DNA of 64,000 bases, taken from assembly GCA_035248905.1 (NCBI GenBank), contig DATFGX010000010.1:55579-119578 (forward strand), in the 5' to 3' direction. Source of the DNA: Blastocatellia bacterium. Its GTDB lineage: Bacteria; Acidobacteriota; Blastocatellia; UBA7656. The position numbers and the translations under genes were made by a program. Numbering within the stretch: the first letter of the stretch is position 1; the number at the start of each line of letters is the position of its first letter. Below, piece by piece: positions 1 to 62,840 of the stretch. The notes below the pieces were generated by a model. The model was not told where the DNA came from and did no database searches. It saw only the letters and a program-made list of their open reading frames with translations.

Positions 1-887
1 TCAGCGCCGTTTCGGACGCGGTGATCCGCGCGCGGTCGGGCTTGAAAGACCCGAACCGTCCGATCGGCTCATTTATCTTCCTGGGGCCTACGGGCGTCGG
101 CAAGACGGAATTGGCGCGGGCGCTGGCGGGCTTCCTGTTCGACGACGAGCACGCGATGATCCGCATAGACATGTCCGAGTACCAGGAGAAGCACACCGTG
201 GCGCGCTTGATCGGTGCGCCGCCCGGTTATGTCGGTTATGAAGAAGGCGGGCAGTTGACCGAAGCGGTGCGCCGCCGGCCTTACTCGGTCGTGCTGTTCG
301 ACGAGATCGAAAAGGCGCACGCCGACGTGTTCAACGTGCTGTTGCAAATCCTCGACGACGGGCGGCTGACGGACGGCCAGGGGCGCGTGGTGAACTTCAA
401 GCACACGATCATCATCATGACGTCGAACATCGGCAGCCATCTGATCCTCGAATACAGCGGCAGGCTGGAGGGCGAGCAGTACGAGCAGATGAAGGACAGT
501 GTGCTCGACGCCTTGCGGCATCACTTCCGGCCTGAGTTCTTGAACCGGGTTGACGAGATCATTGTCTTCCACGCGCTGACCCGTGCCGACTTGAAGAAGA
601 TCATCGACATTCAGCTCGAACGCTTGCGCGGGCGCTTGAGCGAGCGGCGCATCAAGCTGAAGCTGACGGATCGTGCGAAAGAGTATCTCGCCGAAGCCGG
701 CTTCGACCCGGTCTACGGCGCGCGTCCGTTGAAGCGGGCGATTCAGCGCGAGATCGAAACGCCGCTCTCAAGGGCGATCTTGAAGGGCGAGGCGAAGGAC
801 AACTCGGTGGTCATCGCCGATCTGGAGAACGGCGAGATCAAGTTCCAGAGCAAGCCGCTGGCTGAATCAGTGGTCAGTGGTCAGTGA
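1..887 (+). CDS. clpB: ClpB chaperone, C-terminal AAA+ D2 domain (5'-partial; gene begins upstream of window)
   Basis: The translation (...[27 protein letters not shown]...[53 protein letters not shown]...) is near-identical to the ClpB NBD2 Walker A/sensor region. The frame continues to base 3 with no start codon. Confidence 0.9.
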
Positions 888-935
888 CCAGTGGCCAGTG
901 GTCGTCGCATCCGTGACTGGCCACTGACCACTGGC
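861..935. repeat. Palindromic hairpin element built from GTGGTCA/GTGGCCA-type heptamer repeats
   Basis: GTCAGTGGTCAGTGACCAGTGGCCAGTGG ... CCACTGACCACTGGCAACTGGCCACTGCC are inverted arms. The element overlaps the clpB stop. Confidence 0.7.
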
Positions 936-1006
936 AACTGGCCACTGCCATTGCTATGATGAAAGCACACGCGGCTGACAGTCGGAGAGCAGGAGGTCTG
1001 ACTCGC

Positions 1007-1333
1007 ATGGCTGAGATGCTTGTGATGCGACGCGCAAACGGCGACCTCTTCAGTAAAGAGATCAATGGGCAGCCGCGCATTCTCGTCTGGTCGAGCCGCG
1101 CCGCCTGCGCACGCTATCGAGAACGTAATCCTGAACTCCTGACGTACTTGCCCGCGCGCCTCGACGAAGCGTTGCTGCGACGCATCGCCGGCGACACCAA
1201 CGGCGCGCGGCACGCGACTTTCTTCCTCATCGCAGAGGACGCACCGGACGCTTCACTTGACCGGGGCCGCAGTGTCGCCCCGGACGAACTCTTGCTGACT
1301 TGCCGCGCCGCTGGGCGCGCGCGATCAGCGTAG
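1007..1333 (+). CDS. Hypothetical small protein (109 aa), apparently co-transcribed with the downstream eRF1-like gene
   Basis: A strong AGGAGG Shine-Dalgarno sits 9 nt upstream of the ATG at 1007. The ORF ends 55 nt before the next RBS+ATG. No recognisable family. Confidence 0.4.
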   Translation: MAEMLVMRRANGDLFSKEINGQPRILVWSSRAACARYRERNPELLTYLPARLDEALLRRIAGDTNGARHATFFLIAEDAPDASLDRGRSVAPDELLLTCRAAGRARSA

Positions 1334-1388
1334 CCAAGGTCGTCTGCGCCCTCGCTCGGAGCAAGGAGACCAACGCAGAACAAGGAGG

Positions 1389-59986: not shown

Positions 59987-59995
59987 CCAGCACCT

Positions 59996-62650
59996 TTAGC
60001 GCGCTTCGACCTGCGACGATTGCAGCTTGAGCGGCAGCATCTGGCCATTCGGCATGCGCAGGAAGCACTGGCCTTCGTTGAGCGTCAGCGGCGAAGTGCC
60101 GGGGTTCTTGACCGTGAAGACGATCAGGCACAACTGGCCGCGCGCCAGCGCGCCGCCGCTGCCCTGCGGCTTGTCGAGCTGAATCTGCAACAGCCCGCCT
60201 TCGCCGGTGAACTGCAAGTCCGGCGGCGCGCCGCCGTTGCGCAGCAGGCCGCTGTCGCGCACGCTCTTCGGCTCCAGCAGGTTGGTGTCGTAGCTCAGCG
60301 AGATGTGCGCCGACGAAATTTCGTTGTTGCCAACCAGGTTGATGGCGACGTAGAGGTCCTGGCCGCGCGTCGCTACCGGGGTCGCCGCGCGCACGCTGAC
60401 GATCACCGGCTGCGCCGCCTTGTCGCCCTGCTGGCCGGGCGCGTCGTCGTCGTCGTCATCGTCGTCGTCATCCAGCTTGTTGCGCTGGCTCTGACTGGTC
60501 GCTTTGTTCGCCTGCGTGGGTGCGCCCGGCGCCGATACAGAGGTGCGCTGAATGTCTGCGCGAGCCGCGGGCGGTTGCGTCGGGATCGGCCCGACGACGA
60601 CGCCCGTGGGCGTGCCCTGCCCGTTAGCCGACGGCGGCGCGGCGACCGGCGTTGCCGTGGCGGCGGCGGGCTTAGCCTCCGACTGCCCGCCGCCCATGGC
60701 GACTGGCGGCCCTTGCGCCTCGTCCTGGTCGGCGAGGTAGAGAATCTGCTCGATGCGCAGTTGGTTGTAAGCGTTCTGCGCGTCGCCCGAGAACTTCGCG
60801 TAGTGATCCTCGTCGCGGATGTCGGCGCGGCGCAGGATGTGCGGCGTCACCGTGATAATGACATCGCTCTGCGTGTCTGTAGTGTCAGGCGTCGCGAAGA
60901 AGCGACCGAGTATGGGAATCAAGCCGATGAGCGGGATGCCGCGGATGCGCTTGGACTGCTCGGTCTGCGAGACGCCAGCGATGAGCGTCGTCTGCCCGTC
61001 CTTGATGCGCGCCATCGAAGACATCTGCCGCTGGTTGAACGACGGCGTGAACTTGCCCGTGCTCTTGTCGAGCGAAGACGATTCGATCTTCATCTTCAAC
61101 TGCACTTCGTCTTCGTAGACGTTCGGCTTCATATCGATGTTGAGGCCGACGTTCTCGTACTGAATCTGCGGGTAGCCGCTGCCGCCAATGCCGAAGTTGT
61201 TGAAGTTCTGCGTTGGGTCGTTAGGGTTGGTGACCTGGCCGTTGCGGTTGACGTTGACGCCAGTGTAGCTCGGAATGAACGCTGTCTGAATCGGCACGCG
61301 CTGGCCGATCTTGATCGATTGATCCTGGTCGTCGAGCACGTGCACCTGTGTCGAGGCCAGCAGCTTGGCCTTGCCCTTGTCCTGGAAGAAGCTGACGACG
61401 CTCGGCGGGATGCCGGCGGCGAAGCCCCAAGGGCCGCCGGTGATGAACCGTTGCGCGAACCCGGTGGCCAAGCCCCCCTGGCCGAAGCCGCCGATGGCGC
61501 TGAGGTTGCCGGCGCCGCTCTGCGCATCGCTGCCGGGCGAGTTGAACTGGTTGCCGAGCGACAGCAGATCGTTGCGCGACACTTCGTAGAGATTGATGTC
61601 GATCAAGACTTCAGCCTTTGCCTTGTCCATCGAGTTGATCATCGATTCGATCAGCTCAAGGTTGGCCGGCGTGTCGCGGACGATGAGCGCGTTGAGCTGC
61701 TTCACAGGCGTCACCGACTTGGTGTTGAGCGACGACTGGACCGCGCCCTTGACGTCGGCCAGATCGGCGTATTTGATGTAGAAGGTGCGCACCGAATAGG
61801 GCTCGTACTTCATGCGCGAGGTCGGGTTGTCGCTGGCGACGACGATGGTGCGCGTGTCGAGCTGCGCGTACATCAGGTTGTTGGTCTTGAGGATCATCTC
61901 CAGCGCGTGCGGGTACGTCACGTCGCGTATCTCGACGTTGATCTTCTGCGCGCGCATCATGTTCTGCACCTGCTGGTCGAAGATGACGTTCAACTTCATG
62001 GTCTGCGCCAGTTGCTCGATGGCCGCAAGCAAGGGCGTATCGCGATAGACGACATCGGTTCGGCTGAAGTGCTTGCCCGGCACCGCAGGCAACTGCACAG
62101 GGATGTTGCGGCTCGGGAAGTAGATGCCGTTGGCCGTCGGGACAGTGACGGGCTTGCCCGACGCGTCGACGCTGGTTCTCATGAACGCCGCTTTCTTGTT
62201 AGGGTCGTTCTCGGGTTTGATCCTCGGCCCCGCCTCGTCACCGCCCGAAGGCAGGTCGGTGGTCGGCAGCCCTTGCTTTTCGAGCATGCGCCGCGCCTTG
62301 ATCAGCGCCATCTCATTGGTCGGGTCGAAAGAGAAAGCCTGGCGGAAAGCTTGATAGGCAGCGTTGTAATCCTTCTGCTCGGCGAGCTTGTTGCCGCGTT
62401 CGACCAACATCGCGCCGGCGTTCACCAGGGACTTCTGAAGATGCAGGCGATATTCGATGTTCGACGGCTTTTCGGCCACCGCCAGCGCGAACTGCTCGGC
62501 GGCCTTGTCCCACTGCTGATTGTTCTCGTATTGCATGCCCTGCTTGAAGTGTTTCTTGCCGTCGCCGGCAAGCGCCACCAGCGGCACGCTCAGCAGCAGC
62601 ACGAGCGCCATCGCCATCGCCTGTTGAAACTTCAGCATCCTCTTTGCCAT
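59996..62650 (-). CDS. Secretin (GspD/PilQ family) with N-terminal TPR domain and C-terminal poly-Asp linker plus cohesin-like beta domain
   Basis: Signal peptide and TPR. The secretin domain (VLIDINLYEVS...GIPLIGLIPILGRFF) is followed by DDDDDDDDD and a roughly 150-aa beta domain. Confidence 0.85.
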   Translation of the reverse strand: MAKRMLKFQQAMAMALVLLLSVPLVALAGDGKKHFKQGMQYENNQQWDKAAEQFALAVAEKPSNIEYRLHLQKSLVNAGAMLVERGNKLAEQKDYNAAYQAFRQAFSFDPTNEMALIKARRMLEKQGLPTTDLPSGGDEAGPRIKPENDPNKKAAFMRTSVDASGKPVTVPTANGIYFPSRNIPVQLPAVPGKHFSRTDVVYRDTPLLAAIEQLAQTMKLNVIFDQQVQNMMRAQKINVEIRDVTYPHALEMILKTNNLMYAQLDTRTIVVASDNPTSRMKYEPYSVRTFYIKYADLADVKGAVQSSLNTKSVTPVKQLNALIVRDTPANLELIESMINSMDKAKAEVLIDINLYEVSRNDLLSLGNQFNSPGSDAQSGAGNLSAIGGFGQGGLATGFAQRFITGGPWGFAAGIPPSVVSFFQDKGKAKLLASTQVHVLDDQDQSIKIGQRVPIQTAFIPSYTGVNVNRNGQVTNPNDPTQNFNNFGIGGSGYPQIQYENVGLNIDMKPNVYEDEVQLKMKIESSSLDKSTGKFTPSFNQRQMSSMARIKDGQTTLIAGVSQTEQSKRIRGIPLIGLIPILGRFFATPDTTDTQSDVIITVTPHILRRADIRDEDHYAKFSGDAQNAYNQLRIEQILYLADQDEAQGPPVAMGGGQSEAKPAAATATPVAAPPSANGQGTPTGVVVGPIPTQPPAARADIQRTSVSAPGAPTQANKATSQSQRNKLDDDDDDDDDDAPGQQGDKAAQPVIVSVRAATPVATRGQDLYVAINLVGNNEISSAHISLSYDTNLLEPKSVRDSGLLRNGGAPPDLQFTGEGGLLQIQLDKPQGSGGALARGQLCLIVFTVKNPGTSPLTLNEGQCFLRMPNGQMLPLKLQSSQVEAR

Positions 62651-62799
62651 GACCAGTACCTCGAAAATGAATTTCTCACACGGGAACAACGCAGCTTACG
62701 AATGCAAGGCGTCCGCCGCCCCTCCCCAATGGTTCGTCTTGCCGGGCGGCCACGCGTTCGGACTTCTTAGCCAGTCTGTTCAGTTAAACCACTCTACCA

Positions 62800-62840
62800 T
62801 GCCGGAAGTTCAAAATAAACAGTGGCCAGTGGCCACTGAT
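62800..62840. repeat. Short palindrome CAGTGGCCAGTGGCCACTG (GTGGCCA family) downstream of gspE
   Basis: Related to the element at 861-935. Confidence 0.6.

Follow-up and report, generated by a model that had tools for sequence, protein, structure and literature searches.

The intergenic spacers of a 64-kb stretch of Blastocatellia (Acidobacteriota) DNA, internal to the 273-kb metagenome contig DATFGX010000010.1 and referred to here as the window, carry a dense set of hairpins whose arms are tandem arrays of a short unit, in most cases a heptamer. At orthologous spacers of related genomes the position and architecture of the hairpin persist while the unit turns over, and the elements are foldback simple-sequence repeats belonging to the class of the inverted GGGAATC heptamer pairs of Xanthomonas. 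Our preferred explanation, to which we assign a probability of about one half, is that these repeats grow by replication slippage and act as mRNA punctuation in the manner of repetitive extragenic palindromic (REP) sequences and bacterial interspersed mosaic elements (BIMEs), a role that we infer from their placement and structure.

Repeats were detected with Tandem Repeats Finder (TRF) and two inverted-repeat searches, one with a repeat tool and one with a purpose-written ungapped finder (arm of at least 18 nt, score of at least 14 at +1/-2, loop of at most 100 nt). The ungapped finder returned 16 long inverted repeats in the window compared with 0 in each of 20 dinucleotide shuffles, and 16 of 16 are located in spacers, with non-coding DNA amounting to about 8% of the window. 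Ten of the repeats have arms of period 7, four are built from 8-10-nt units (CGCCAAGA three times and CACGGAG once), and two are non-periodic. Addition of a more weakly paired element at 57865-57936 and a short copy at 62820-62838 results in 15 clear elements and one marginal element (Table 1), so that the hairpins with tandem-unit arms described in an initial annotation of this DNA are real, although its count of at least 20 exceeds the 15-16 periodic hairpins found here. Assembly artefact was ruled out as a source of the elements, which are internal to the contig and recur in many independent assemblies, including the complete chromosomes OY969701.1 and OY970256.1.

By TRF the elements are paired period-7 arrays in which the units of one array are the reverse complement of those of the other, with 3.3-6.1 copies in 11 elements, and the period-7 autocorrelation of the arms is 0.64-0.92. 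All 15 clear elements fold as a single long stem with minimum free energies (MFE) of -38.7 to -73 kcal/mol and z values of -4.7 to -14.6, and none of these folds was matched by any of 200 shuffles, in line with the stable stems expected at the outset. The arms are 18-35 nt long and comprise 3-6 units, the number of which can be unequal between the two arms (4 and 6 in E2, for example), and they start with GTGAC, AACCGCC, GATTTTG, CAGTGG and other sequences. The total length of an element is 59-111 nt. The loops (11-60 nt) are unique and GC-rich, some with a small palindrome of their own, and copies within one family have loops that are unrelated in sequence and vary in length from 12 to 60 nt. 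Across the approximately 70 kb of the contig that was read, the unit families are GTGACAA (five copies), CGCCAAGA (three), GGGGCTA (three) and GATTTTG (two). The order GTGACAA-GTGACGA-GTGACAA-GTGACAA is present in both arms of several GTGACAA copies, and the remaining copies differ at one or two units. When E8 is compared with E10, a T/C change in the 5′ arm is compensated by an A/G change in the 3′ arm, leaving both stems perfect (28/28). The claim of several multi-copy tandem families confined to spacers is thus upheld for most of the units originally named. Period scores and folds show two of them to be ordinary palindromes, with GCGCAAGCT (6146-6231) being a pair of nested palindromes and GCAGCCCGC (18585-18680) a plain GC hairpin. 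A second hairpin superfamily has 8-9-nt units of the form YRCNRAGA (CGCCAAGA, CGCAGAGA, CACAGAGG, CGCAAAGA, CACGGAGA) and is represented at 20993-21064, 24345-24411, 33756-33825 and 14148-14206 of the window and at loci L116, L080, L085, L121 and L135; it occurs in Blastocatellia as well as in Thiohalomonas (Gammaproteobacteria) and Isosphaeraceae.

The elements are positioned closely against the ends of genes. Of approximately 37 spacers of at least 40 nt, 15-16 (about 40%) are occupied, with occupancies of 10-11/20 for co-directional, 4/8 for convergent and 1/9 for divergent spacers; the convergent, same-strand and single divergent contexts are as first reported, but the occupancy is well below the "almost every intergenic region" of the initial annotation. 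For 14 of the 15 clear elements the distance to a stop codon is between -21 and +17 nt, 7 elements overlap the 3′ end or stop codon of a coding sequence, as had also been noted (E1 covers the clpB stop), and 6 of the 15 end 5-13 nt upstream of a start codon with the ribosome-binding site just outside the stem. A pooled set of 107 period-7 hairpins was assembled with the ungapped finder from loci containing (GTGACAA)3G and from relatives of the window genome. Median spacings in this set are 3 nt to the stop codon on one side and 9 nt to the following start on the other, and the contexts are co-directional for 65, convergent for 10 and divergent for 12 (n = 87).

Several elements extend into translation signals. 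The pseudopilin open reading frame (ORF) at 59393-59986(-) has its N-methylation motif at residues 42-66, compared with 12-34 in the neighboring pseudopilin, and its leader is about 30 residues longer because the GATTTTG hairpin E15 is inside the 5′ end of the gene. The only in-frame starts are an ATG upstream of the hairpin and a GTG in the loop, and as the stretch from the 3′ arm of E15, read on the minus strand, to the G|F cleavage site is free of start codons, a portion of the prepilin leader is encoded by this arm, in agreement with the proposal that a hairpin supplies 5′ coding sequence here. The start site and ribosome-binding site of this pseudopilin may be presented in, or masked by, the hairpin. 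For clpP, the start of the longest ORF (GTG 2550) reads through E2, whereas the gene call stored for the contig, against which the window calls were checked, and a GGAG ribosome-binding site place the start at ATG 2625. Arrays of this kind draw ORF calls into the hairpins, resulting in false upstream clpP starts, an altered ClpB C terminus and an altered pseudopilin leader. In the clpB-orf108 spacer (approximately 931-975) a motif, TTGCTATGATGAAAGCAC, with a -10-like TATGAT preceded by TG was matched in a promoter scan; its core (TGCTATGAT...GAAGCAC) is retained in six of six relatives immediately past the variable hairpin, and some of these relatives have the core as an inverted repeat, GTGCT-N8-AGCAC. 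This motif probably serves the orf108-baeRF-clpP genes as a promoter or operator.

Table 1. Foldback elements of the window, with unit, arm structure, genomic setting, MFE (kcal/mol) and z value
Element	Position	Unit and arms	Setting	MFE	z
E1	867-947	CAGTGGY foldback, 5.3 + 4.6 units, 16-nt loop	Between clpB and orf108; 5′ arm contains clpB stop codon (885-887), 21 nt inside element	-61.6	-8.2
E2	2528-2615	GTGACAA foldback, 5′ arm 4 units, 3′ arm 6 perfect units	Begins 2 nt past baeRF stop; ends 9 nt short of clpP ATG 2625	-52.7	-7.3
E3	3602-3700	GGGGCTA/GGGACTA foldback	hsp20-lon spacer; first unit includes hsp20 stop; lon ATG 13 nt past element end	-73.0	-6.6
E4	7965-8051	GGGTGWT foldback	maoC-like/acyl-CoA synthetase genes (both -); overlaps maoC stop	-54.5	-6.7
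E5	14148-14206	CACGGAG-based, 8-10-nt units	Convergent spacer; among the few elements flanked by an A-run and a T-run	-44.6	-9.7
E6	16336-16422	GATTTTG/GATTTTA	Aconitase-family/E1 dehydrogenase genes (both -); adjoins stop codon; next start 10 nt past its end	-38.7	-6.8
E7	20993-21064	CGCCAAGA, 8-9-nt units, 3 vs 2	Sole element in a divergent spacer	-48.9	-9.0
E8	24345-24411	CGCCAAGA, perfect 28/28 stem, 11-nt loop	Convergent spacer	-63.9	-14.6
E9	31596-31693	GTGACAA/GTGACGA, 44-nt loop with own small palindrome	EncFtn/VWA genes (-)	-52.7	-6.6
E10	33756-33825	CGCCAAGA, perfect 28/28 stem		-56.9	-11.9
E11	45384-45494	GTGACAA	Solute-binding-protein gene/first permease gene of opp-type ABC operon (-)	-55.6	-5.7
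E12	48895-48971	GTGACAA, 30-nt arms (97% complementary)	Convergent spacer	-58.1	-9.8
E13	57865-57936	GGGGCTA/GGGACTA, weaker complementarity	Convergent spacer	-42.5	-4.7
E14	58879-58968	GGGGCTA-type	Pseudopilin gene 1/orf309 (-)	-67.4	-7.6
E15	59859-59968	GATTTTG, 33-nt arms (97% complementary), 44-nt loop	Secretin/pseudopilin gene 2	-57.5	-7.0
E16	62820-62838	Short CAGTGGC copy, 2.3 units, 8-bp stem; marginal	4 nt past gspE stop		

Six syntenic relatives (L118-L122 and L135) were compared with the window genome, whose nearest relatives in the database have at most 94% Lon identity. The gene order dnaJ-clpB-orf108-baeRF (family 10)-clpP-hsp20-lon (window 3-6158) is shared with L118-L120 and L122, and the L121 cluster is dnaJ-clpB-clpP-hsp20-lon, without orf108 and baeRF. 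The position of the eRF1-like "bacterial archaeo-eukaryotic release factor" gene amid chaperone and protease genes suggests a possible connection with quality control of ribosomes or proteins. Heptamer hairpins are present at the dnaJ-clpB, clpB-orf108, baeRF-clpP and hsp20-lon spacers both in the window genome and in relatives of 91-93% Lon identity. The unit in the dnaJ-clpB spacer is GTGACAA in the window genome and GTGATRA, AGTTTTN or GGTTTCT (two relatives) elsewhere, and that in the baeRF-clpP spacer is GTGACAA in the window genome and GGGGCCG (two relatives) or GTGAAAC (two relatives) elsewhere. The hsp20-lon spacer has GGGGCTA in the window genome and GAGGCTA, GAGACTG/GCGGCTA, AGTCAGA or GGGGCCR in relatives, and the clpB-orf108 spacer has CAGTGGY in the window genome and in two relatives, with CTACTGC (3′ arm) in L120. 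Relatives in subsets share a unit, as expected from descent, and the unit number varies among them. L121 (87% Lon identity) has no dnaJ-clpB hairpin, the spacer being just 26 nt, and in L122 (83%) long GC hairpins that lack periodicity occupy three of the four spacers (z values of -1.8, -2.6 and -3.1). Some adjacent spacers, such as orf108-baeRF (approximately 60 nt), are free of hairpins in the relatives read. In L118 and L121 some elements are adjacent to or nested within others, and L121 also contains a CAACTGA/TAACTGA array. Downstream of lon, L118, L119 and L122 have a canonical terminator with a GC stem and a T-run, L120 has a GTGATGC heptamer hairpin, and the window genome (6146-6231) has the nested palindrome GCGCAAGCTnnnAGCTTGCGC twice, inverted, with no T-run.

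The density of periodic hairpins is 0.17/kb in the window, 0.11/kb in relatives with 83-93% Lon identity and 0.07/kb in metagenome loci with at least 76% Lon identity. In 638 kb of other Acidobacteriota loci (Lon identity of at most 68%, GC 0.59) the density is 0.003/kb, approximately 25-50-fold lower at equal GC, indicating that the high density is a trait of the Blastocatellia lineage and not an effect of composition.

The pooled hairpins have two further regularities. The 5′ arm contains more G than C in 97 of 107 hairpins and less in 6, corresponding to 41 and 6 distinct consensus units, respectively, and as the elements are palindromes this polarity is identical when read from either strand. 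The CGCCAAGA copies are opposite to the heptamer families in this respect, with more C than G in the 5′ arm. Stop codons in the 5′ arm were considered as a general cause of the polarity, as many units contain TGA or TAG and provide stops in three frames, and were rejected because GATTTTG, GGGTGTT, GGGGCCG and AGCCGGT share the polarity and have no stop triplets. The order of variant units is also mirrored between the arms. The 76 hairpins in which both arms contain variant units have 1896 matched bases, compared with 1673 ± 18 after permutation of the units within one arm and re-registration of the arms, and 72 of the 76 are above their own permuted mean; some bias is possible in this comparison, as detection favors well-paired hairpins.

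The GTGACAA arrays are widely distributed. A scan for (GTGACAA)3G over one genome per species of the GTDB gave at least 116 loci among the matches listed, compared with our own estimate of approximately 0.07 expected by chance. Forty of these are from Acidobacteriota, mostly Pyrinomonadaceae, and other phyla among the matches listed are Chloroflexota (Thermomicrobiales), Bacteroidota, Chlorobi, Planctomycetota, Armatimonadota and Gammaproteobacteria. Several arrays outside Acidobacteriota have the hairpin form and the alternation of GTGACAA with GTGACGA. Among viral contigs 12 arrays were found, of which only one is in hairpin form, with no sign of phage carriage. An 8-kb locus of a Thermomicrobiales metagenome-assembled genome (MAG), L006, contains seven long inverted repeats, and the six listed have multi-unit heptamer-periodic arms with the units AGTGGCA/AGTTGCA, AGCCGGT and GGCGGRA, so that a Chloroflexota lineage seems to show the same dense multi-family phenomenon. 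The contigs of the MAG "uncultured Clostridia bacterium binchicken_co174_39" (L013, L017, L023, L046, L060, L065 and L098; 57-60% GC) carry GTGACAA/GTGACGA hairpins of the Pyrinomonadaceae type, which makes this taxonomic label look doubtful.

In the mechanism that we propose, the arrays would gain and lose units by replication slippage, as suggested by the 4 and 6 units in the arms of E2 and by the unit numbers that differ among relatives. The arms would be held complementary by template switching between them or by selection for pairing, and the element would expand until it meets a stop codon on one side and a ribosome-binding site on the other. When transcribed, it would form a stem of 25-35 bp with no U-tract, for which termination by the intrinsic route is not expected. 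Such a stem at a cistron boundary could shield the upstream cistron from 3′ exonucleases and serve the downstream cistron as a 5′ cap, and it would be a likely RNase III substrate. E11, placed between genes for a binding protein and a permease, occupies the site at which REPs are classically found, which supports a REP-like role. Selection on the hairpin is supported by its persistence at the same spacers, by the non-periodic hairpins of L122 at three spacers and by the depletion of elements from promoter spacers.

Several observations weigh against slippage-grown mRNA punctuation. Slippage at one locus does not explain the unit order shared among distant GTGACAA copies, it leaves the G-rich-5′ polarity unexplained, and it does not account for (GTGACAA)3 arrays in many phyla, which point to copying or transfer. 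Among the arm mismatches of the pooled hairpins, sense-strand G·U pairs are not in excess (45 sense-wobble and 51 antisense-wobble), so that there is no sign of selection at the level of RNA as opposed to DNA, and the elements could simply be junk that is tolerated. One element, E7, lies in a divergent promoter region. In addition, the pooled loci were ascertained via a single heptamer, (GTGACAA)3G, among the matches listed, and gene orientation in these loci was assigned by our own heuristic based on ORFs and GC content at third codon positions (GC3).

The view that the elements are a neutral mutational by-product is tentative and, on balance, somewhat unlikely. A small ancestral hairpin would stall replication, slippage at the base of the hairpin would duplicate about 7 nt on both arms, and the lengthened stem would cause still more stalling, so that growth would run away until checked by coding or translation signals. 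Such a process accommodates elements that take up the spacer as far as the stop codon and ribosome-binding site, sometimes entering the end of the coding sequence, as well as the GC-rich loops, often with a small hairpin, the unequal unit numbers of arms such as those of E2 and the lack of a strand-specific RNA signature. It is also consistent with heptanucleotides being the commonest class of long simple-sequence repeat (SSR; 5-11 nt) in prokaryotes, possibly via the polymerase footprint, according to Mrazek et al. 2007, cited in PMC4679880 and PMC4692102. Left unexplained are the units shared by distant spacers and between genomes and the G-rich-5′ polarity, and the presence of hairpins at the same four spacers in five relatives, and in non-periodic form in L122, with some adjacent spacers such as orf108-baeRF remaining hairpin-free in the relatives read, argues against neutrality.

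An actively mobile class of element, resembling REP sequences with their associated tyrosine transposases (RAYTs), miniature inverted-repeat transposable elements (MITEs) or foldback transposons, could explain both the families and the unit turnover if new copies displace old ones, but we consider it unlikely. Each genome has few unit families and each is multi-copy, the internal order of variant units is common to copies, adjacent and nested elements are found in L118 and L121, and the (GTGACAA)3 arrays at 116 or more listed loci in many phyla are far above chance, all of which fits mobility. Inspection by eye of the sequences bordering the five GTGACAA and three CGCCAAGA copies, however, did not reveal a target-site duplication, copies within a family have no common interior, and neither a transposase nor a RAYT was found in the approximately 50 window ORFs scanned with Pfam. 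The hairpin form is nearly absent from the viral-contig matches (1/12), and the sharing of a unit at the same spacer by subsets of relatives fits vertical descent. Drosophila Foldback (FB) elements have long inverted arms of short tandem repeats, with unequal arms and a variable or absent center; they are found in eukaryotes, their arms extend over kilobases and are built of 10-31-bp units, and they transpose and rearrange genomes. Their likeness to the present elements is architectural only and implies no homology.

REP sequences and BIMEs of enterobacteria and pseudomonads are, like the elements described here, extragenic high-copy palindromes located at gene 3′ ends or in intercistronic gaps such as that separating binding-protein and permease genes, and as they are proposed to stabilize the upstream mRNA they are the closest functional model (PMC3733652). 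REPs differ in being 20-40-nt imperfect palindromes with a GTAG/CGTC head, a link to RAYTs and no internal tandem periodicity (PMC3733652). The present elements are extragenic, multi-copy and situated at 3′ ends and between cistrons, but none of the 15 has a GTAG or CGTC head. With respect to the initial suggestion of a mobile or REP-like class with a role in transcript punctuation, REP-like punctuation is the most plausible effect of the elements, and assignment to REPs or MITEs is not supported by the heads, by the window ORFs or by the flanks and interiors. The palindromes at 52174-52247 and 43033-43150, which do have GTAG heads, fit the REP definition better and are a separate family from the heptamer hairpins. 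These GTAG-headed palindromes (GTAGGGGCGACC, GTAGGGGCAGGGC and GTAGGGACGCGATG, at the two sites above and at approximately 6985-7125 of L118) resemble classical REPs or REP doublets, and in L118 one of them sits within a heptamer hairpin. A search of the whole window on both strands against Rfam 15 gave no match at the gathering score.

That the elements are transcription terminators, either bidirectional or of the "I-shaped" kind without a U-tract proposed for high-GC bacteria, is improbable. Fourteen of the 15 clear elements are beside a gene 3′ end, half of the eight convergent spacers are occupied, T-rich tails follow E5, E9 and E12, and the stems are very stable throughout. However, only 6 of 65 co-directional pooled hairpins are followed within 12 nt by four or more consecutive T residues in the sense direction and 11 of 65 in the antisense direction, and a consensus scan of positions 1-20000 gave 14 sites compared with 17 expected by chance, none of them at an element. 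Many elements are inside apparent operons (the opp and type II secretion clusters), several ending 5-13 nt before the next start codon, where efficient termination would be harmful. Canonical U-tract terminators are present and conserved in the same genomes, as at 53735-53770 and after lon in L118, L119 and L122, and the class enriched in convergent spacers is that of the non-periodic long inverted repeats (23/58 pooled, compared with 10/87 for heptamer hairpins). The statement of the initial annotation that the hairpins are not simply terminators thus agrees with our results.

A role at the DNA level, by means of cruciform or slipped structures, G-quadruplexes (G4) or binding sites for a protein with a 7-nt footprint, and affecting supercoiling, replication or the nucleoid, is highly doubtful. 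It would be compatible with complementarity that is kept symmetrically with no sense G·U excess, with a polarity that is the same from either strand and with the G4 formation of Xanthomonas and Nostoc units in vitro described in PMC4692102, but G4-capable G-runs are found only in the GGGGCTA-type family, the free variation of units among relatives at one spacer argues against a sequence-specific binding protein, and the tight fit to stop codons and ribosome-binding sites together with promoter-spacer depletion points to expression-signal constraints.

It is equally improbable that a dedicated system makes or uses the foldbacks and that each half is synthesized as an array 5′ to 3′ towards the center. 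By analogy, the G-rich strand would then run inward as in a head-to-head telomere fusion. Mirror order, unrelated filler loops and GTGACAA/GTGACGA hairpins in several phyla fit such a system. If it exists, a horizontally spreading enzyme would lay down or copy arrays, for example by end extension or fold-back copying, or alternatively a protein whose footprint is 7 nt, for example a cold-shock-domain protein able to melt the stems, would read the arrays as a regulon extending over the genome; the high density confined to Blastocatellia at unchanged GC would reflect gain or loss of that factor.

The genes of the window are ordinary chromosomal genes, and its GC content is 61-65% throughout. Its Lon protease has 91-94% identity to proteins annotated as Blastocatellia bacterium, which places the host among the uncultured members of this class. 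Pfam scans identified the heat-shock/protease cluster clpB-orf108-baeRF-clpP-hsp20-lon, an opp-type ABC operon, a type II secretion or pilus cluster, an extracytoplasmic function (ECF) sigma factor together with a Ser/Thr kinase, and a WD40 protein. The gene of the WD40 protein (1062 amino acids, 14 WD40 units) contains 126-bp DNA repeats at 22297-22820, and a separate 12/36-nt coding repeat is present at 57195-57343 in the ORF 57157-57534, which has no Pfam match.

Inverted intergenic heptamer pairs have been described in Xanthomonas (PMC4692102), so the combination of features regarded as unusual in the initial annotation is not without precedent. Rehm et al. (2015, PMC4692102) report approximately 185 GGGAATC arrays per 5-Mb genome in X. 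campestris and X. axonopodis, about 90% of them intergenic and typically of about 4 copies, with 70-75 cases per genome of two nearby arrays that are convergent and on opposite strands. The mean distance of the arrays to the upstream ORF is 28 nt, few arrays are found between divergent genes, and they occur in the same spacers of related species with highly variable length and sequence; Nostoc PCC 7120 has GGGGAYT repeats. Location near the 3′ end of the upstream ORF, rarity in divergent spacers and occupancy of the same spacers in relatives are common to the elements described here, and the G-rich array comes first in the Xanthomonas inverted pairs, which is the polarity that we observe. Our elements thus have all architectural features of the Xanthomonas/Nostoc-type class except G4 potential. 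G-runs of at least 3 are present only in the GGGGCTA/GGGACTA family (E3, E13 and E14), with none in GTGACAA, GATTTTG, CAGTGGY or CGCCAAGA, and G4 tracts are a property of the described Xanthomonas and Nostoc examples rather than of the architecture. Those genomes each have one dominant G4-forming unit, whereas at least 6-7 unrelated units, most of them non-G4, are found here in 64 kb, together with 8-9-nt unit families, a density (approximately 0.2/kb) much above that of the Xanthomonas arrays and a host of a different phylum.

Two other classes are close in some respects. The short tandemly repeated repetitive (STRR) sequences of heterocystous cyanobacteria are tandem heptanucleotides with several unit families per genome, an intergenic location, a sporadic phylogeny and a proposed origin by slippage, but they are described as direct arrays, and the mirrored-arm hairpin is outside that definition. 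The TAACTGA repeats of Beggiatoaceae, cyanobacteria and Bacteroidetes (MacGregor 2015, PMC4679880) are likewise a heptamer shared by distant phyla and are intergenic, just upstream of start codons; a post-transcriptional role with binding of a cold-shock or S1 protein has been suggested. Unlike the present elements they form no hairpins, with 169 sets direct and 1 inverted (PMC4679880). No description of elements such as ours in Acidobacteriota was found in the literature. The elements are neither a new category nor REPs but a multi-family, very dense form of a known repeat class. What is new is that several unit families coexist in one genome, that relatives retain the hairpin at a spacer with a different unit, and that the elements show mirror order, G-rich-5′ polarity, GTGACAA arrays across phyla and a high density restricted to Blastocatellia.

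Intergenic heptamer repeats have been noted in bacteria since the work on cyanobacterial STRRs. The lineage described here is a dense multi-family case, and its density of approximately 0.2/kb extrapolates to roughly a thousand elements per genome. It comes with natural controls, as sister classes of equal GC are almost devoid of the elements and relatives keep the hairpin while swapping the unit. These controls make it possible to test whether the stem or the unit is selected, why the unit is 7 nt, why the G-rich arm is 5′ and what effect the hairpin has on the expression of neighboring cistrons.

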